Shown here piece after piece: positions 3,525 through 62,050 of a stretch of 64,000 bases of DNA. The position numbers and the translations under genes were made by a program. Position 1 is the first letter of the stretch; the number at the start of each line of letters is the position of its first letter. Source of the stretch: a virus; IMG/VR virus record IMGVR_UViG_3300035492_000225; one strand, 5' to 3'. Under the pieces are notes generated by a model. It searched no databases. It was not told where the DNA came from and saw only the letters and a list, made by a program, of their open reading frames with translations.

Positions 3525-5480
3525 CTAGAAATAACTGACTTGGGTGATTCCTAATGCTTTGGCCTTCTTCAGCTTGTCCGGTCCAGCACCAGCACCGACA
3601 TAGATGACATCAGTATTCTTACTGACAGATTTGCTCAACTTAGCACCGCGCGCCTGGACCCATTCCTCCATTTCTTTACGGGAACGTCCTTCAAATACAG
3701 ATCCAGTTACCACCACAGTCATTCCAGCCAAGTCTTGCTGTTCTGCTTTGGGACGCTTAGTTTCTACATAGGTCAGCGTCTTATCCAGATTGGTCAGATC
3801 ACCGGCTTGCAGGTCATCCAACGTCATGATGCTGGAGACAACTGCTGGACCAATGTCTGCGATGGATGTGATGTCTTCTTCGGAAGCCGACATAAGTTCG
3901 ACGAAAGAATGGAACTTCTCTGCCAAAGACCGTGCAGTTGAATCACCGATCTCAGGTAGACCCACTGCCCGAAGTACTTTGAAGAACGGAATGGTTTTTA
4001 CCTTACTGATGTTGTCCAGTATCTTGGCGGTCATAGCGCTACCGACACCAGCTTGATAAAAATCATCTTCATTCAGATAGAACAAACTATTGAAAGAACC
4101 CAGAGAACCGGAGACAATCAGCGCCTCTACCACTGCTGGTCCCATGTACTTGACATCGATACCATCTCGACTCACGAAATGAGCCATGCGGTTGATCAAC
4201 TGTGCAGGACACGTTACCTTGTTGGTGCAAAGTAATTCGATACCGGTCGCTGATCGTGTCGTAGGCTCTCCACAGGAGGGGCAGGTATCCGGTGTCCCTA
4301 TGACACCATGTTCATCTTCCCTCAGTGCTACTACCACTGATTCGATCTTAGGGATAACATCTCCTCGGCGAGATACCACTACCGTATCCGATAGTCTCAA
4401 ATCCAGGCGCTCAATCTCGGTCAAATTATGCAAGGTCACGCTACTGACGGTGACGCCACATACAACGACCGGATCAATTTTTGCTACTGGAGTAATGACT
4501 CCTGTACGCCCCACCTGAAACTCTACAGCTCTAAGGATGCTAGTTGCCGTCTGTGCTTGAAACTTATACGCAGTAGCCCAACGCGGTGTGGTGGACTTGG
4601 AACCAAGTTTCTTTCGCTCAGATGATGACAATACCTTGATGACCATCCCATCGATATCGTAGCCGATATCAGCACGCCCTTCCATAGATCGATTGATAGC
4701 ATCCATCAACTCATCGTTTCGATCAGATACACCCACCCAAGGCCGCTCGACTAAGATAAAGTCATCCATATCCTCTTCATACGCGTAGACGTCAGTGTTC
4801 TCCCATTCCCCGTCTTTGGTTTTCTGAATATACAGGTCATATGCAATAAAAGTCACTTTACCCAGATGACTAGGGTCGGCATCCAGGCTACGTAGAAGAC
4901 CCGCTACGGCGTTCCTGGGATTGGCATACACAGTCTTGCCAGATGCTTGACGTGCCGTGTTGAGACTATGGAATACGTCATTCTTGATGATGACTTCACC
5001 ACGGACGATGATGCTGTGGAGTCCTTTCAATGAAGATTGTAGGTCGAATGGAATACCTCTGAAGTAACAGGCGTTCTCAGTAACATCATCACCCACCTCG
5101 CCATCACCGCGAGTAGAGGCGACAAAGAGCTTGTTGTTACGGTAGACCAGTTCCAGACTGGCTCCATCAAGCTTATACTCGAGGCCAATGGTAGTCTCCA
5201 CTGGCAGCGTGGATAGCCACTGGATCACTTCGCCTTCATCGAAGACGTTATCGAGTGACAACATCGGTACTGGGTGGGTGAATTTATCGAACCCACCATT
5301 ACTCGGAGCACCAACTTGGTTGATGGGAGACAGCGGATCTGTACTCCCTGGCTCCAGCGCAGTCAGTTCTGCCTTGAGGGAATCGTATACCTCATCGGAT
5401 ACAGACGATTCCCCTTTATTGTAATACTCATCGTTCAGTTGCGCGATGAGTTTACGTAATTCTTTAACCCGTTTCTTCAT
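3525..5480 (-). CDS. ligA: NAD-dependent DNA ligase
   Basis: EYKLDG adenylation motif, STRGDG, RWATAYKF, OB fold, Cys4 Zn finger (CPSCG..C..C), HhH and C-terminal BRCT. Confidence 0.97.
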   Translation of the reverse strand: MKKRVKELRKLIAQLNDEYYNKGESSVSDEVYDSLKAELTALEPGSTDPLSPINQVGAPSNGGFDKFTHPVPMLSLDNVFDEGEVIQWLSTLPVETTIGLEYKLDGASLELVYRNNKLFVASTRGDGEVGDDVTENACYFRGIPFDLQSSLKGLHSIIVRGEVIIKNDVFHSLNTARQASGKTVYANPRNAVAGLLRSLDADPSHLGKVTFIAYDLYIQKTKDGEWENTDVYAYEEDMDDFILVERPWVGVSDRNDELMDAINRSMEGRADIGYDIDGMVIKVLSSSERKKLGSKSTTPRWATAYKFQAQTATSILRAVEFQVGRTGVITPVAKIDPVVVCGVTVSSVTLHNLTEIERLDLRLSDTVVVSRRGDVIPKIESVVVALREDEHGVIGTPDTCPSCGEPTTRSATGIELLCTNKVTCPAQLINRMAHFVSRDGIDVKYMGPAVVEALIVSGSLGSFNSLFYLNEDDFYQAGVGSAMTAKILDNISKVKTIPFFKVLRAVGLPEIGDSTARSLAEKFHSFVELMSASEEDITSIADIGPAVVSSIMTLDDLQAGDLTNLDKTLTYVETKRPKAEQQDLAGMTVVVTGSVFEGRSRKEMEEWVQARGAKLSKSVSKNTDVIYVGAGAGPDKLKKAKALGITQVSYF

Positions 5481-5911: not shown

Positions 5912-5951
5912 AAAAAAAAAATAAAGGCAGGAGGACATTGTCCTCCTGCCT
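5912..5951 (-). terminator. Intrinsic terminator
   Basis: 12-bp stem aggcaggaggac/gtcctcctgcct followed by a U-run on the minus strand. Confidence 0.85.
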
Positions 5952-6345: not shown

Positions 6346-6966
6346 TTACTCTATGGTTTCACCTGGTAATGTGAAGTTCCAGGTCATTGTTTCCAGGCCC
6401 GTTCTATCACTGTTGTTGAACATGTCGTACAGCTGTCTTTCAAGTGCATGTCTCTGTGCTGTAAGATGCGCCATGGCTGGTGCAAATAACGCATCATTCT
6501 CTAACACCCTTTGCTTTAGATGACCTAATCCACCAGGTACACCTACACCGTCACGAGCATTGCTTAGATCATAGAGAAAAGGACATACGTCCCTTGGAAT
6601 GTCTTCGATGCTCGATCCAGGGTTTGCCTCCAACCATTCATCAATAGCCTTGGCTTCCTGCAGCTGAACAGTCCATGTAATAGCTTCTGATAACGGGTAG
6701 GTTGATTTTAGGTCCTGGATGATATTCTCATAATCCAAGTTGAGTTCTCCTGTACGAAGCAGGAGAAGATCAAAAAGACCCATCTTTTCTACCGGAGTAC
6801 TTGGTGGTATCGTGACAGGTTTACCATTGGCTAAGTTGGAAAGACTATATCCATTTTCTAGATCAGCAATGATCTGGTTGTATTCTTCATCGGTTACAGC
6901 CACACCATCCTGCCAAAGGTTGTGTGTCTGATTGAAGACCTTGTTCCGTTTGGAGAAATACCACAT
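6346..6966 (-). CDS. Putative tail-fibre assembly/chaperone-like protein
   Basis: N-terminus MWYFSK..VF...EYNQIIADLENG...GKPV resembles Tfa-type proteins; lies in the fibre island. Confidence 0.5.
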   Translation of the reverse strand: MWYFSKRNKVFNQTHNLWQDGVAVTDEEYNQIIADLENGYSLSNLANGKPVTIPPSTPVEKMGLFDLLLLRTGELNLDYENIIQDLKSTYPLSEAITWTVQLQEAKAIDEWLEANPGSSIEDIPRDVCPFLYDLSNARDGVGVPGGLGHLKQRVLENDALFAPAMAHLTAQRHALERQLYDMFNNSDRTGLETMTWNFTLPGETIE

Positions 6967-8040: not shown

Positions 8041-8065
8041 AGAGAGGAGGGGTGTCCCTCCTCTC
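8037..8065. repeat. CATAGAGAGG-family hairpin (truncated right arm)
   Basis: gcatagagaggaggg-gtgt-ccctcctctc. Confidence 0.75.
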
Positions 8066-8071
8066 CTTTAT

Positions 8072-8851
8072 TCACCGACGCTTGAGTAGTGCTATCATCC
8101 AAGCAGCTGTATCGAATTCCCACCACTTTTCCTTGATCGACTGACGACCTGGGTATCTGTGGTGGTTGTTGTGCCAACCTGCGCAACCAAAGCTGAACAG
8201 ATGCATCCAGATGGAATTCTGCGATTTATCCATCGTAACGAAATTTCGATAGGTAAAGGGCAACTTGACATGAAGACCGATGTTCTGGATAGTGGACATA
8301 ATAGGTGCCAGAGCCCACGGGAGAATAACGGCGAAGAAAGCGCCATTGACTCCAAATGGAATCGCCCACATCAGGAACCAGGCAACCATCCAAAGCACGT
8401 AGTACTTGTGCAGTGACCGATGCAGTGGATCTGCTAACAGACCTCTGGAACTGTGCAATGTACCGATGTTGGGATAACGCCACAGGAGCATATCGAGTAC
8501 AGAACTGTGATGTGGACTATGTGGGTCTAGAGGACTGTCGACATGGACGTGATGTGCCTTATGGAGAGCCGCCCAGCCGGCCGTTGAGCCTGTTCCCGGT
8601 ACGACGCTAGCCAGAATAGCCAACGTGTATTCTACGGGCTTATAGAGCTCGTACGTACGATGTGCGCACCAGCGATGAAGGTAGGCTTCGATCAGTACCA
8701 CATTGAAGACGACTACGATCGCCAACGTGACCCAAAGCCACTGCCAATCGAGGTCAGTGGTGAAAGGCAGTACGATAAGTGCAATAAGGCCGACCAGCAT
8801 CTGCCCGACCATGAACTCACCTCGAGAGCGGGTGATCTCCCAGAATGTCAT
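8072..8851 (-). CDS. Membrane fatty-acid desaturase (delta-9/DesC-OLE1-like), copy 2
   Basis: Three His boxes HRWCAH, HKAHH, HNNHH plus hydrophobic TM segments; start at 8851 behind AAGGAG. Confidence 0.9.
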   Translation of the reverse strand: MTFWEITRSRGEFMVGQMLVGLIALIVLPFTTDLDWQWLWVTLAIVVVFNVVLIEAYLHRWCAHRTYELYKPVEYTLAILASVVPGTGSTAGWAALHKAHHVHVDSPLDPHSPHHSSVLDMLLWRYPNIGTLHSSRGLLADPLHRSLHKYYVLWMVAWFLMWAIPFGVNGAFFAVILPWALAPIMSTIQNIGLHVKLPFTYRNFVTMDKSQNSIWMHLFSFGCAGWHNNHHRYPGRQSIKEKWWEFDTAAWMIALLKRR

Positions 8852-18306: not shown

Positions 18307-18344
18307 GACATAGAGAGGATGGTCTAGACCATCCTCTCTATGTC
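18307..18344. repeat. Perfect 38-bp palindrome, CATAGAGAGG family
   Basis: gacatagagaggatggtc-ta-gaccatcctctctatgtc. Confidence 0.9.
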
Positions 18345-19689: not shown

Positions 19690-19725
19690 GCATAGAGACA
19701 CGGTTCCAGCCCGTGTCTCTATGTC
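19690..19725. repeat. CATAGAG-family hairpin
   Basis: catagagacacgg-ttccagc-ccgtgtctctatg. Confidence 0.8.
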
Positions 19726-23603: not shown

Positions 23604-23639
23604 GCATAGAGAGGAGAGGTAACCCTCTCCTCTCTATGC
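23604..23639. repeat. CATAGAGAGG-family hairpin
   Basis: gcatagagaggagagg-taac-cctctcctctctatgc. Confidence 0.9.
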
Positions 23640-28777: not shown

Positions 28778-28808
28778 GCATAGAGAGGGCATTAGCCCTC
28801 TCTATGTC
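28778..28808. repeat. CATAGAGAGG-family hairpin
   Basis: gcatagagagggc-atta-gccctctctatg. Confidence 0.9.
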
Positions 28809-34921: not shown

Positions 34922-34975
34922 CAAAAGAAAAGAAAAAAAAAGAAAGGGATGAGCAGGGGACATCCCCTGCTCATC
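34922..34975 (-). terminator. Intrinsic terminator
   Basis: gatgagcagggga-ca-tcccctgctcatc followed by a long U-rich tract on the minus strand. Confidence 0.85.
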
Positions 34976-35285: not shown

Positions 35286-35378
35286 TCTTCCTATTCACTC
35301 GTACTATGTATTGTTGAAATAGTTTCGAATAGACTTTCCAGTCGACATAGAGAGGAGGGATGGTCCCTCCTCTCTATG
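35286..35378 (-). promoter_or_regulatory. Hairpin plus promoter cassette, copy A (motif at 35306-35330, palindrome at 35346-35378)
   Basis: Near-identical to 56108..56198. Confidence 0.8.
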
Positions 35379-47326: not shown

Positions 47327-47364
47327 CAGCATAGAGAGGAGACCTAGGTCTCCTCTCTATGCTG
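47327..47364. repeat. Perfect 38-bp palindrome, CATAGAGAGG family, between convergent genes
   Basis: cagcatagagaggagacc-ta-ggtctcctctctatgctg. Confidence 0.9.
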
Positions 47365-55340: not shown

Positions 55341-55396
55341 AAAAAAAAAAGAAAAAAAAAGAATTACGCAGCGGAGAGTGCCCCATGGCACTCTCC
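55341..55396 (-). terminator. Hairpin plus long U tract
   Basis: ggagagtgcc-ccat-ggcactctcc at 55373-55396; A-tract at 55341-55360. Confidence 0.75.
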
Positions 55397-56107: not shown

Positions 56108-56198
56108 TCTTCCTATTCACACGTACTATGTATTGTTGAAAAATATTCGAATAGACCTTTGAGACGGCATAGAGAGGAGGGTCACCCTCCTCTCTATG
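56108..56198 (-). promoter_or_regulatory. Hairpin plus promoter cassette, copy B (motif at 56128-56152, palindrome at 56168-56198)
   Basis: Near-identical to 35286..35378. Confidence 0.8.
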
Positions 56199-57778: not shown

Positions 57779-58012
57779 CTAATTCCTTGGATAGAGGGTA
57801 TTTACCAGGTCGACGCAGTGACCAAACCAAACCGTTTCGATACCGGTAGCATCGACTGACATACATACATCGAAGAACTCTTCGCGTCGGTCAATTAACT
57901 GTTCAGCATTGACGGAGAATTGCTCCAACATACCGTAGGTGAACGCAATAACCACCCCCAGCGCACAGAGAAACTCCAGTGGTTTCACGGTAAGATACAT
58001 AGTTCGCATCAT
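57779..58012 (-). CDS. Small protein with one hydrophobic segment (77 aa)
   Basis: Fills the gap with an overlap to the upstream stop. Confidence 0.55.
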   Translation of the reverse strand: MMRTMYLTVKPLEFLCALGVVIAFTYGMLEQFSVNAEQLIDRREEFFDVCMSVDATGIETVWFGHCVDLVNTLYPRN

Positions 58013-58692
58013 TCGATCACCTCATTTGGGAATAGACGTTTGAAGTACGTCTTGAGTTCTGCTAACGCTGTGGTGTGATGGTACCGAACAACCGCAATGG
58101 AATCTCCTTTGGAGAACACTGCTTTGAACTGCATCTCATCATCGATAGTCGACACAAACGTCCCTTTAAACATATAGCCTTTACCCAACATGAGTAGCTG
58201 CATACATGCAATAGCAAGTGTGAAGTAGTGAGGGAAATCACCACACTCATCCTTCAGGAATGTAGTCTGGGTCGATGGGATGGAATGCGCTACATAGTCG
58301 TGGTCATCGGTATAAAAACTGATTTCGACCACCACTGGCAGAGAACAGTCATCCGGTACAGGTACAATTCCGTCAACGAAAGAATCGGCACCTGGTTTGA
58401 TCAGCTTAAACATCGATAGATTGGAGTGGAATCTGATAAACGGTTCTTCGGCAGGAATATGCGAATAAAATCCTGTCAGGACATACGGGGTGGGTGTGAA
58501 GCTAAGGTCTTCTTTAGAACCCAGACATCTCATGGTATCGCGGTCGTATTGTAGAAAAATCCCATTGATCGCTTCCTGACTGATATCGTCGAAGAAATTG
58601 GAAATGAAACCGATGTTATGGAGACGGATTTCTTCAGTGGTCTGCTTGGAAATCTCTTCTTTCCTGGAAGTGAGGCTCACTACGTTGTCCAT
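58009..58692 (-). CDS. Hypothetical protein (227 aa)
   Basis: CAGGA RBS-like sequence. Confidence 0.7.
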   Translation of the reverse strand: MDNVVSLTSRKEEISKQTTEEIRLHNIGFISNFFDDISQEAINGIFLQYDRDTMRCLGSKEDLSFTPTPYVLTGFYSHIPAEEPFIRFHSNLSMFKLIKPGADSFVDGIVPVPDDCSLPVVVEISFYTDDHDYVAHSIPSTQTTFLKDECGDFPHYFTLAIACMQLLMLGKGYMFKGTFVSTIDDEMQFKAVFSKGDSIAVVRYHHTTALAELKTYFKRLFPNEVIE

Positions 58693-58729
58693 GGATATAT
58701 CCTGTCAGGTTAAATTAGAGTCGGCATAA

Positions 58730-58756
58730 CGCCCTACTGGAGCGACCAGTAGGGCG
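58730..58756. terminator. 11-bp hairpin closing the RNA island
   Basis: cgccctactgg-agcga-ccagtagggcg. Confidence 0.65.
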
Positions 58757-58918
58757 ACAGAGGCTTATTTCGGTTACTGCTTCAACCGTAGTCACGTGCT
58801 GCGGCTAGAACATCGTCCAGATCGTACAACAGTCCATCTGGGGTAGTACACATCGAACACTCTATCGGATGGACCTCGATAAAGGCTAGCTCCACGGATG
58901 TTACTCGGGAGGCGTGTA

Positions 58919-59006
58919 TGGCAGAAGCGGTGAGATTAGAACTCACGGACCCGTTAGAGTCGACGACCTTCAAGGTCGCTCCATTAAACCACTCTGGCAC
59001 GCTTCT
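58919..59006 (-). tRNA. trnS: tRNA-Ser (UGA), CCA encoded
   Basis: AGAAGCG/CGCTTCT acceptor, G73, anticodon loop CT-TGA-AG, long variable arm, T-loop TTCTAAT. Confidence 0.9.
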
Positions 59007-59015
59007 ATATTTAAG

Positions 59016-59128
59016 ATCGATGACCCAAGTTACGGGTAATGGGCACCACCCCTACTGACGTCATTACAAGGTTTTAATCCCCATAACAACCATGTACACA
59101 TTGGCGTCAGTCAAGGCCAGTCATCGAT
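59016..59128 (-). ncRNA. Candidate structured RNA between the tRNAs
   Basis: 9-bp closing stem atcgatgac/gtcatcgat; internal actgacg/cgtcagt. Confidence 0.5.
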
Positions 59129-59133
59129 ACTAC

Positions 59134-59218
59134 TGGTACCCGAAGCCGGACTCGAACCGGCACGCTTTACAGCAGGGAATTTTAAATACCCAACGTCTAC
59201 CAATTTCGTCATTCGGGT
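59134..59218 (-). tRNA. trnL: tRNA-Leu (UAA), CCA encoded
   Basis: ACCCGAA/TTCGGGT acceptor, A73, loop TT-TAA-AA, GGTTCGAGTCC T-arm. Confidence 0.93.
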
Positions 59219-59265
59219 GGAATTCTATTAACAAAATAATAATGGTAGATGGATAATGAAGTACG

Positions 59266-59283
59266 ACCCTCCCGAAGGAGGGT
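59266..59283 (-). terminator. Hairpin with UUCG loop
   Basis: accctcc-(ttcg on minus)-ggagggt. Confidence 0.6.
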
Positions 59284-59341
59284 TATACCCGGCGACGATG
59301 GAGGGCGAGCTCCGCATTCTACCTTTGGTTCATCGCCTACT

Positions 59342-59432
59342 GAACAACTGACTGGATGAGTTCGACCCTTCAATTAAGGGCCTGGCAAGTCCATGCTACC
59401 ATGTGGCCTGAAACGGCCTTTGTCAGTTGTTC
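59342..59432 (-). ncRNA. Candidate multibranch ncRNA
   Basis: 11-bp closing stem gaacaactgac/gtcagttgttc; internal ccctt/aaggg and ggcc/ggcc hairpins. Confidence 0.55.
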
Positions 59433-59554
59433 TTTATGCTCATTATTTCGGATGAGCATAATAATGATGTATCACTTCAGTTTATTTCAGTAAACTTCTC
59501 AAGAGCTCACTGCGGCCTTGGTGTCGATATTCGTGATACACTTCTTAAATAGGC

Positions 59555-59639
59555 GGAGAGCAAACCCAGGTCTCCTGATGTACCCGACGGGAGAGTACGG
59601 AGACAGCGAGTTAGATTAGCACCCTCTGGGGAGCTCTCC
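59555..59639 (-). ncRNA. Candidate rod-like ncRNA
   Basis: Nested ggagagc/gctctcc, cccag/ctggg, gtctcc/ggagac and gtac/gtac. Confidence 0.55.
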
Positions 59640-59643
59640 TGTT

Positions 59644-59768
59644 TGGAACAAGCGGGTGGAGTCAAACCACCACACCGGCGTGGGGCGGGTGTAAGAGATC
59701 ACCCCTTAGACGTCATGGTGTCCAAGGCTAAGTCCGAATTTCACGGTGCATGGTTTCTCAACGCCTGT
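59644..59768 (-). ncRNA. tRNA-like RNA (acceptor stem, T-arm, CCA) with non-canonical interior
   Basis: ACAGGCG/CGCTTGT, U discriminator, CCA; GGTGG-TTTGACT-CCACC T-arm; 125 nt with no standard D or anticodon arm. Confidence 0.6.
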
Positions 59769-59782
59769 ATTCAGTGACCTTG

Positions 59783-60304
59783 TTAATCGAGCAGATATTC
59801 GATATCTTCAACAAAGCCAATTGACACAGTGATACGGGGTTTTTCTTCACTCAGTGCAGATACTGAATGGGGTTCCAGTACTCGAATGGCGTAGACACCA
59901 TCGAGTTCCAATTGGTCCATCAGTTGACACTTGTCAGGATCATAGTAGTCGTATGGGATACCACCGACTGCCGTGAACCGTTTCTCAGGTGGCTCAGTAA
60001 CCTTCCACCATTTGGTGAAAGTACCTTCACAATTGGCAATTGGGAAGTTGATCCTGACCTGCTTGGTGTCGTTATCGACGTGAATGGTATCGTGGGTGAA
60101 CTTGTAATACACGATAGCTAAGAACTCGATGGTCAGATCCAGGGGCTTGAACAGATGTTCCAGTTCAGGGATCTCTTTATATACTTCAGACTTACGCAGG
60201 AACGAGAAGGTCCCTTTGATAAGTTCTGGACGATCTTCGATATACTTCTGCAGTTTCGCAGGGATATCACCGACATCGATTTCGAGTTTCTTATAGTAGT
60301 TCAC
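59783..60304 (-). CDS. Putative 2OG-Fe(II) oxygenase/DSBH protein
   Basis: IHVD...RINFPI...PHSV...PRITVSI: HxD...H...R signature. Confidence 0.7.
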   Translation of the reverse strand: MNYYKKLEIDVGDIPAKLQKYIEDRPELIKGTFSFLRKSEVYKEIPELEHLFKPLDLTIEFLAIVYYKFTHDTIHVDNDTKQVRINFPIANCEGTFTKWWKVTEPPEKRFTAVGGIPYDYYDPDKCQLMDQLELDGVYAIRVLEPHSVSALSEEKPRITVSIGFVEDIEYLLD

Positions 60305-61174: not shown

Positions 61175-61606
61175 TTAACATTCCTTGAAATGGATGTATC
61201 TCATTAATGTACAGTAGGTGTGATTATCTATCATACCGTCCTTCACACATGCTGCTGATTTATCATGGACTACTCCGGGATACCCATCCCGGATTGCCAC
61301 ACAAAGAGTAAACGAACGAATCATACCTTGACCACATTGGATGAGAACGGTATTCTCACCCGTGGCCATACAGCGGTTAATGAATTCGTCTACTTGCTTG
61401 GCCATAACTTCTGTAAACACATATTGTTGATCATCGGCTTCGTACAGGAACTTCTCGTCACCTGGATGAAAATGGAGTCTGAGGACATGACGATTCTGTT
61501 CGTTATCCAGCGTCTGATATGGACGAACTGGATCACAGATCGTAATGACCGGGAGAGTGTTGTCAAAGCTGTTTACCTTCTTTTGACTTACGTTGATGAC
61601 TTTCAT
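61175..61606 (-). CDS. Protein-tyrosine/dual-specificity phosphatase-like protein
   Basis: CX5R loop IQCGQGMIRS; VITICDP and LRLHF motifs. Confidence 0.75.
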   Translation of the reverse strand: MKVINVSQKKVNSFDNTLPVITICDPVRPYQTLDNEQNRHVLRLHFHPGDEKFLYEADDQQYVFTEVMAKQVDEFINRCMATGENTVLIQCGQGMIRSFTLCVAIRDGYPGVVHDKSAACVKDGMIDNHTYCTLMRYIHFKEC

Positions 61607-62050
61607 TTAATCCTCTCGATTCAAACAACAAATGAATTTACCCGGTACATAAGGGAATAGGGCTTGATATACGTGCCGTATATCCGTTTCGAAATCAAGG
61701 CCACCATGACCACACCCAAGGGGAGGTAATGCTATCGTCCCCAGTCTGGTGCGTTGGGAGAGAATCGCTAACCGGTTTATATTGTTCACCACGAGTGATC
61801 TCGGCGATGGATCGCACCAATCCAATTTAGTCGGGACTAGCAGATACCGTTTATCATCATGAGTATAAACAATGAACTGCCAAGGCTCTATTTTGGGGTA
61901 CATGGTCTTGTAGTGATTATAGAGACCAGGCACTGTGTCTCTAGCTATTTTAGCTATACCAGCACCCATAGCACCCACAAGATTTATGGTCACCACATAG
62001 GTGTCAGCCTCAACGTCAAATAGACTGGAATTCGTTTCCATATAAGACAT
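61607..62050 (-). CDS. Macrodomain ADP-ribosylhydrolase, DarG/TARG1-like
   Basis: VTINLVGAMGAGIA, PTKLDW.DPS, IALPPLGCGHGGLDF. Confidence 0.85.
   Translation of the reverse strand: MSYMETNSSLFDVEADTYVVTINLVGAMGAGIAKIARDTVPGLYNHYKTMYPKIEPWQFIVYTHDDKRYLLVPTKLDWCDPSPRSLVVNNINRLAILSQRTRLGTIALPPLGCGHGGLDFETDIRHVYQALFPYVPGKFICCLNRED

Follow-up and report, generated by a model that had tools for sequence, protein, structure and literature searches.

Putative structured RNA genes interspersed with tRNA genes in a phiKZ-like jumbo phage

Organization of the island

The DNA studied here, hereafter the window, is a stretch of 64,000 nucleotides (nt) from the virus record IMGVR_UViG_3300035492_000225 of IMG/VR, in which an island of 1,090 nt separates the minus-strand open reading frames (ORFs) 59783-60304 (173 amino acids, aa) and 58009-58692 (227 aa). 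An initial annotation, made from the letters alone, had described a gene-free region of about 1 kb holding two transfer RNA (tRNA) genes and at least four structured RNAs. Indeed, no credible ORF is found on the minus strand of 58693-59782, where the longest has 72 aa and several overlap the tRNAs, and ARAGORN calls a tRNA-Leu and a tRNA-Ser in this interval. Every element listed in that annotation also folds in agreement with its description there. Comparison with related phages supports a view of the gap as an array of RNA genes, in which four elements other than the tRNAs, designated A1, A2, B and C, appear to be under selection for structure. All parts of the island lie on the minus strand, and are given below in 5' to 3' order along it.

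59644-59768, minus strand: A1, putative tRNA mimic of 125 nt (fold, conservation and compensatory changes)
59555-59639, minus strand, with a conserved tail to 59547: A2, the "rod" of the initial annotation, 85 nt (fold, conservation and compensatory pairs)
59219-59546, minus strand: lineage-specific stretch (folds alone)
59134-59218, minus strand: tRNA-Leu, anticodon UAA (ARAGORN; Rfam RF00005, 46.6 bits; resembles annotated phage tRNA-Leu genes)
59016-59128, minus strand: B, multistem RNA of 113 nt (conservation and compensatory pairs)
58919-59006, minus strand: tRNA-Ser, anticodon UGA (ARAGORN; 76-83% identity to annotated tRNA-Ser genes of other phages)
58730-58917, minus strand: C, RNA of ~190 nt (nine distinct copies, compensatory pairs)
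58722-58729, minus strand: UUAUGCCG, directly 3' of the terminal hairpin of C (generic post-hairpin motif of this phage)

A search of the whole window against Rfam 15 at gathering thresholds gave no matches, and cmscan of 58400-60100 at E <= 10 returned the tRNA-Leu as the sole credible hit, with msr, a small nucleolar RNA and PhotoRC-I at chance level. Likewise, A1, A2, B and C, which the initial annotation could not match by eye, find no match in Rfam 15 by cmscan, and neither the precedents it had named, GOLLD and theta ribozymes, nor any other large ornate RNA or ribozyme of the hepatitis delta virus (HDV)-like or hammerhead type is detectable at E <= 10. Calls made by ARAGORN under relaxed settings (introns, lowered thresholds), such as a 'tRNA-Trp' across the A1/A2 junction and tRNAs with giant introns, are implausible and were rejected. 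Prediction returned neither a sigma-70 promoter nor a classical terminator for the minus strand of the island, as would be expected if the phage uses its own RNA polymerases.

Phage identity and related loci

By protein similarity the window is assigned to a phiKZ-like jumbo phage, of which it is a fragment, with Pseudomonas phage pPa_SNUABM_DT01 (DT01 hereafter) as the nearest relative in GenBank: a 976-aa virion protein shares 55% identity with DT01 and 34-38% with other phiKZ-like phages. The DT01 locus (loci are designated by L numbers, this one being L001) is syntenic, with macrodomain, phosphatase and crAss001_48-like genes upstream and a 243-aa gene downstream. In the window, the macrodomain gene and a dual-specificity-phosphatase-like gene are located upstream of the island at 61175-62050, in synteny with DT01, and the DT01 counterpart of the latter is annotated as a putative protein tyrosine phosphatase. 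DT01 also possesses a largely gene-free island, with tRNA-Asn, tRNA-Asp and one annotated coding sequence (CDS) of 78 aa inside, and the two islands can be aligned over a single stretch only (window 58771-58842, 83% identity), after which the genes are unrelated.

Searches of IMG/VR and of Joint Genome Institute (JGI) metagenomes with the flanking proteins revealed no relatives; the closest by protein are Logan contigs encoding P0001 (92%), P0002 (79%) and P0004 (59%). Related loci were gathered with a DNA pattern derived from the window/DT01 alignment. This yielded ten loci, nine from metagenomes and one from IMG/VR, of which five belong to contigs of 240-260 kb. A first DNA pattern for C had found no match in IMG/VR, one of the bases it required being variable. 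When the island was compared with the gathered loci by BLAST, three conserved blocks were detected besides the tRNAs, with an overall nucleotide identity of 73-86% to the window copies: 59547-59757, which holds A1 and A2 (77-82% in L003, L004/L012 and L009), 59016-59127, which corresponds to B (73-78% in L003, L004, L005/L009 and L012), and 58722-58893, which corresponds to C (79-86% in all gathered loci). The flanking genes of 173 and 227 aa have no counterpart in these loci by BLAST.

Folding energy and conservation of structure

Among windows of 100 nt, z <= -2 is reached by 25% of those in the island versus 13% of those in the flanking coding DNA. Long-range inverted repeats of 9 bp are common, at about 0.4 per kb across the window; those with arms of at least 11 bp (spacer > 40 nt), such as the closure of 59342-59432, are rare and number two in the 64 kb, against about 1.4 expected by chance. 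Neither the sliding z-score scan nor the inverted-repeat census clearly separates the island from coding DNA; it is the comparison with relatives, and not folding energy, that marks the four elements as more than chance. Across the homologues, every frame of A (A1 with A2), B and C is interrupted in at least one copy, and most indels measure 1-2 nt.

Covariation is observed in all of the conserved blocks. In the eight-sequence alignment of A1 plus A2, 95.5% of the cells are paired and 32 of 62 pairs carry changes on both sides; the corresponding figures are 96.9% and 9 of 40 compensatory pairs for B, and 95% and 13 of 52 for C, including 5 of 6 in its hairpin H1 and 6 of 11 in its terminal hairpin. 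In each of the three cases, 0 of 500 shuffles attained such values, and in slid controls the paired fraction was 38-48% for A1 plus A2, 31-62% for B and 30-47% for C. These figures bear upon the idea that the non-tRNA elements are decaying tRNA pseudogenes, functionless and neutral debris of tRNA-cluster turnover. Such an origin would account for the half of a tRNA retained in A1, for the tRNA-like pieces of relatives that escape ARAGORN, for the variable tRNA content among relatives and for the unconserved 330 nt in the middle of the island. Nevertheless, 95-97% of the pairs are kept through 9-32 compensatory changes, and identities of 73-86% persist where the neighboring genes are unalignable, so that debris is scarcely credible as a general explanation and stays conceivable for 59219-59546 only.

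A1 and A2

On the basis of its modeled fold, A1 would mimic a tRNA of which the acceptor/T-arm half alone is retained. It displays a 7-bp acceptor-like stem (ACAGGCG/CGCUUGU) and a branched domain of 65 nt in the position of the D arm. A hairpin of 21 nt (5-nt loop) comes next and abuts the 5-bp T arm, GGUGG-UUUGACU-CCACC, which is followed by U-CCA (z = -2.0 for 59644-59768). The features that it shares with tRNAs are the 7-bp acceptor stem and the T arm with a 7-nt loop, both stems covarying; in the T loop, U replaces C56. Compensatory changes affect both the acceptor and T stems, and are also found in the pre-T hairpin and in the stem at the base of the big domain. Copies of A1 with 77-82% identity are present in L003, L004/L012 and L009, its 5' two-thirds are also found in L007, and both L003 and L004 have a tRNA-Thr directly after A.

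Two more conventional assignments of A1 were rejected. A canonical tRNA is not consistent with the lack of D and anticodon arms, and there is neither an ARAGORN call (default or relaxed) nor an RF00005 match at E <= 10. As to a transfer-messenger RNA (tmRNA) formed by A1, with or without A2, the tmRNA mode of ARAGORN returned nothing, pair 3:70 is A-U where a tmRNA has G-U, the element has 125 nt only, and no Rfam tmRNA match was obtained. Within A1, the word UAAGGGGUGAUC at window 59696-59707, which reads (A/G)AGGGGUGAU in relatives, is nearly complementary to the 3' tail of 16S ribosomal RNA (rRNA); in the consensus fold this word is mostly base-paired, and its partners covary.

A2 (z = -3.0 for 59555-59639) is a Y-shaped RNA closed by a stem of 7 bp. 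It also contains a stem of 4 bp, a side hairpin GGGU-GCUAAUCUA-ACUC and a long hairpin capped by the loop UCCCGUC, and is followed by a conserved tail G-CCUAUUU at 59547-59554. It is the most widespread module, being found together with A1 in four lineages and without it in DT01 (L001 ~1690-1790), L002 (~6640-6765) and L010 (~3821-3935, minus strand), and among seven sequences all five of its helices contain compensatory pairs. The DT01 copy corresponds to about 169790-169890 of MW735835. Immediately upstream of A2, L001 (1614-1688) and L010 (3927-3999, minus strand) share a long hairpin, AGUCACGC...GCGGCCUCUCACGGCGG..., which is conserved, has an outer stem that covaries, and in this DT01 lineage stands where A1 would precede A2.

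The RNAalifold consensus of the four full A copies contains 62 pairs, 10 of them compensatory. These four BLAST-level copies alone display a C-G to U-A change in the acceptor stem, G-C to U-A in the T stem, C-G to A-U in the pre-T hairpin, and changes in all A2 helices; a covariance model of A1 plus A2 (R2) added the A1-only copy of L007 and the A2-only copies of DT01, L002 and L010. The frequent G-U pairs fit the minus strand only, which is that of the tRNAs.

B and the packing of the modules

B (z = -2.0 for 59016-59128) comprises a closing stem UCGAUGAC/GUCAUCGA of 9-10 bp, with 9 bp in the fold of the window copy, an inner helix ACUGACG/CGUCAGU, a side hairpin, and an apical hairpin with the conserved loop GUUAUGGGGAUUAA. 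In the loci it adjoins tRNA-Leu or tRNA-Ser: in the window it begins 5 nt past the former and ends 9 nt ahead of the latter, and in L009 it stands just before tRNA-Leu. Module order consequently varies by phage, being Leu-B-Ser in the window and B-Leu-Ser in L009, as expected of independent RNA genes.

The spacers of 1-10 nt by which the modules are separated from the tRNA ends might also be taken to mean that the modules are only cis-acting scaffolds for processing and stability, which prevent tRNA misfolding, position the RNase cuts and block exonucleases, and have no function once released. The closing helix present on every module and the CC(N)UAUUU tails that they have in common would be in agreement with such a role. 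A mere spacer, however, has no need of invariant loops such as AGGUCCAUC in C, GCUAAUCUA and UCCCGUC in A2, and GUUGUGGGGAUAA in B, nor would it be expected that A2 is kept at tRNA-free sites and C after protein genes; we regard a pure scaffold as a rather unlikely explanation that still deserves some weight.

The middle third of the island

The stretch 59219-59546 comprises, in order, an AU-rich spacer, a 9-bp hairpin (59435-59460, z = -6.2), a 91-nt multibranch fold (59342-59432, z = -4.85) in which an 11-bp closing stem encircles three hairpins, a stem at 59291-59337, a UUCG hairpin at 59268-59286, and an AU-rich run that leads to tRNA-Leu. BLAST revealed no similarity between this stretch and any of the gathered loci, and no Rfam match was found, hammerhead families included. 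The count of "at least four" structured RNAs in the initial annotation is thus retained for A1, A2, B and C, which are conserved, and has to be given up for the 91-nt multibranch RNA, the 26-nt hairpin and the stems at 59290-59338, which are not. At this position the relatives have tRNA-Thr and other stem-closed modules, and the stretch, unsupported as a conserved RNA, may be lineage-specific filler or a set of young modules of the same type.

Two modules absent from the window were observed in relatives. Module D (~115 nt; L003:1601-1714 and L004:5029-5142) has an 11-bp closing stem that covaries, and by eye only no convincing similarity was seen between it and the 91-nt multibranch RNA. Module E (L009:~8558-8690 and L004:~5270-5397) is tRNA-like, with a stem ACCGUGU...GCACGGU, a UUCGAUU loop and the tail ACC(A/C)-UAUUU. 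Further unannotated sequences of this kind, without an ARAGORN call, are found in DT01 and in L009. The former (L001:3661-3735, MW735835 about 171764-171838) is tRNA-like, begins at the codon that terminates the annotated CDS of 78 aa, and has a GAGGACG...CGUCCUC stem and a GUGGG-UUCAAUU-CCCAC T arm; in the latter (L009:8310-8480), two tRNA-shaped pieces with odd anticodon regions lie ahead of tRNA-Thr.

C and its candidate pseudoknot

C starts with an invariant ACACG, 2 nt past the CCA of tRNA-Ser, and its first helix is a hairpin CUCC/GGAG. This is followed by hairpin H1 (58862-58882) with an invariant 9-nt loop AGGUCCAUC, by a small hairpin and by GAUGGAC (58832-58838), and the 3' part contains, in order, a helix UGUUGU/GCAGCA around a CUGGA hairpin, a hairpin CGGUU/AACCG, GCCUCUG, and the terminal hairpin (58730-58756). 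The sample consists of nine distinct copies, namely those of the window and DT01 and seven distinct metagenomic versions (10 loci, several being duplicates), and scores under the covariance model of C (R1) range from 172 to 212 bits. Among lineages the H1 stem is wholly replaced, reading UAUCG/CGAUA, ACCUG/CAGGU, CUACCG/CGGUAG, CCUCCG/CGGAGG or AUCUACG/CGUAGAU. C is single-copy in the DT01 genome, where it lies at 172026-172230 of MW735835, and absent from the 250-kb relative behind L002. It lies downstream of same-strand tRNA genes in every locus with enough flank, and in L004 it follows a tRNA-like 3' end.

The invariant GAUGGAC, about 30 nt downstream of the H1 loop, is complementary to it (GUCCAUC at 58868-58874 and GAUGGAC at 58832-58838), and the geometry fits the H type, with a first loop of 1 nt, no second loop and a third loop of 24 nt. 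We hypothesize that the two words form a candidate H-type pseudoknot; they are the "paired region" that had been noticed near 58834-58874 in the initial annotation, and which is now placed inside C. A search pattern devoid of the pseudoknot words gave no new members of C, only two chance matches (L014 and L015).

The location of C is also that of the theta (minimal HDV-like) ribozymes, which sit behind phage tRNAs (PMC10879173). C, structured and possibly pseudoknotted, starts right after the 3' end of a tRNA in the window and after a tRNA-like one in L004, and this shared setting, together with its invariant 5' ACACG and the candidate pseudoknot, might point to one or more modules being self-cleaving ribozymes that cut the precursor, with C acting in the manner of theta/HDV-like ones. 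Nevertheless, no HDV-like, hammerhead, twister, pistol or hatchet match is obtained at E <= 10, the first helix of C is a local hairpin and not part of an HDV-like P1/P2 double pseudoknot, its helices are ordered differently, and it is three times larger than the theta ribozymes. Moreover, C elsewhere follows the stop codon of a protein gene, where there is no tRNA to release, and self-cleavage is accordingly considered very improbable.

The 3' end of C

The terminal hairpin of C with UUAUGCCGACUC is one instance of a generic intergenic module, since the arrangement of a hairpin and (C)U(C/U)UAUGCCG or UAUGCUG recurs in some dozen other intergenic regions of the window. Downstream of C, GUUAUG(C/U)(C/U) is kept in all eight complete loci, ahead of five unrelated gene families. 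Based on this generic occurrence and on the diversity of the genes that follow, the hairpin is probably the end of the RNA unit, a terminator, and UAUGCCG probably acts as promoter or start signal for the following gene, the ATG of which lies at 58692 in the window. The promoter role draws on a TATG motif of late promoters in phiKZ, for which the paper that was searched gave no confirmation. A helix CGUGAC/GUUAUG, formerly included in C, was withdrawn, GUUAUGCC being part of the generic intergenic motif.

The complex fold of C, maybe pseudoknotted, and an ORF with a Shine-Dalgarno sequence that starts about 21-48 nt past its reference end in 8/8 complete loci would be consistent with control of the adjacent downstream gene by C, as a 5' leader of the riboswitch, thermometer or translational enhancer kind. 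However, the association with any one gene is not consistent, five unrelated families being found downstream in the eight loci, and the generic terminal hairpin with UAUGCCG suggests that the downstream gene has its own start. In addition, C always stands at the 3' side of the tRNA region, and regulation in cis by C is consequently judged quite unlikely.

The module as it recurs on the minus strand of the window is a hairpin of 10-17 bp, often CAUAGAGAGGAG...CUCCUCUCUAUG, whose 3' arm runs into UAUGCCG or UAUGCUG (for example 56168-56198, 47327-47364, 35346-35378, 28779-28806, 23604-23639, 19691-19723, 18307-18344, 8042-8065 and 2455-2479). In a second class, the hairpins precede long U runs (for example 5925-5951, 34948-34975 and 55373-55396), and the window looks as if it contained two kinds of terminator, one of them fused to a TATG-type phage promoter. 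An intergenic sequence of ~70 nt, ~80% conserved between L001:5545-5616 and two copies in the IMG/VR relative L002 (8455-8523 and 9935-9995), is found in part at window 56128-56152, and may be a promoter or a regulatory repeat.

Discussion

The reading that we favor, and hold to be fairly probable, is that the island encodes two decoding tRNAs and four stable structured RNAs of new families, which are co-transcribed and released by tRNA-processing enzymes. In relatives the closing helices are usually followed by N-CC(A/U/C)-UAUUU, which resembles a tRNA 3' end with an A/U-rich spacer, and from the layout as a whole we infer co-transcription with the tRNAs and release by host tRNA-processing enzymes. 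The modules, each capped by an acceptor-like closing helix, would be transcribed together with the tRNAs; RNase P would cut on the 5' side of the tRNAs and probably also of A1, RNase E would cut the A/U-rich spacers, and 3' exonucleases would trim the products back to the closing helices. Most likely, the resulting RNAs, of tRNA size, would bind proteins and in this way act in trans, a role also proposed for RNAs C and D of T4.

Several observations weigh against this proposal. The folding energies of the island are only modestly better than those of its coding flanks, the support for B comes from four sequences only, and the model itself supplied the alignment of the three divergent A2 copies, a circumstance that favors its structure. 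The candidate pseudoknot of C shows no covariation, both of its words having been demanded by the search pattern in seven of the nine sequences. For A1, the CCA is encoded in the window only, relatives having UCA or UUA, and the first acceptor pair is not conserved, being U-U in relatives, which weakens the idea that A1 is handled exactly like a tRNA. Likewise, A2 also occurs away from tRNAs, lying between the phosphatase gene and the next gene in DT01 and L002, and C sometimes follows a protein gene instead of a tRNA, so that a link to tRNA processing is not obligatory.

A more specific role, which we deem unlikely, is that of trans-acting effectors: during infection by a nucleus-forming phage, the four RNAs would take over the RNA machinery of the host or serve it as decoys. 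Under this hypothesis A1, as a tRNA mimic without a decoding role, could titrate tRNA-binding enzymes or defense nucleases that target tRNAs, its (A/G)AGGGGUGAU word could occupy the anti-Shine-Dalgarno tail of the 16S rRNA, and new ribonucleoprotein particles could be built on A2, B and C as dedicated protein binders.

The favored arrangement, tRNAs with co-transcribed stable RNAs, has its closest parallel in T4, where the genes for tRNA-Arg, rnaD (species 2, 119 nt) and rnaC (species 1, 139 nt) lie back to back. In both cases RNAs of tRNA size, stable in T4 and predicted to be so here, share the strand of a phage tRNA cluster and lie within it or at its end, those of T4 abutting its last tRNA, and rnaC, like A1, combines a perfect T arm and an acceptor-like closing stem around an expanded interior. 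The T4 RNAs are matured along with the tRNAs, and neither is known to have a function. The two systems differ in host clade and phage family, in the presence here of four families, among them C with ~190 nt and a candidate pseudoknot, and in that the models R1, R2 and R3 match nothing in the T4 region but weak T-arm hits inside tRNAs. Expression has been proven for the T4 RNAs, whereas those described here are predicted from sequence.

The position of A1, a half-tRNA mimic (acceptor and T arm) directly upstream of A2, recalls the mascRNA-type elements of MALAT1 and NEAT1 and the t-elements of plant mitochondria. By analogy, A1 could recruit RNase P or RNase Z and thereby define the end of the neighboring RNA; those elements are, however, eukaryotic or organellar, and DT01 and L010 have a plain long hairpin in place of A1. 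GOLLD and ROOL are also structured RNAs of phage tRNA neighborhoods, but they are single RNAs of 500-800 nt with Rfam models, in contrast to the four separate modules of 85-190 nt found here. A single ornate RNA of the GOLLD/ROOL/HEARO/OLE type (> 400 nt) was accordingly rejected, in view of the lack of Rfam matches and of the independent rearrangement of the small units.

As far as sequence comparison can tell, the array is typical of a small clade of phiKZ-like jumbo phages, of the nucleus-forming type, related to DT01. The R1 and R2 models gave nothing credible in phiKZ, LucasX, Psa21, FLC9 and RVTF4, and the families therefore seem confined to the DT01-like clade. The transcriptome papers on phiKZ and 201phi2-1 report other non-coding RNAs, one of them directly upstream of a tRNA, and none of the present families.

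What appears to be new here is a set of four RNA families with covariation-supported structures, in a T4-like arrangement of tRNAs plus stable RNAs. Thus phiKZ-like jumbo phages show an arrangement known beside the tRNA genes of T4, A1 sharing the half-tRNA architecture of rnaC. Since pPa_SNUABM_DT01, which carries A2 and C, is cultured on P. aeruginosa, these two RNAs are directly testable. With regard to annotation, the "empty" kilobases in the tRNA regions of jumbo phages would be read as RNA genes, with modules of a hairpin and TATGCCG marking the boundaries of the units.

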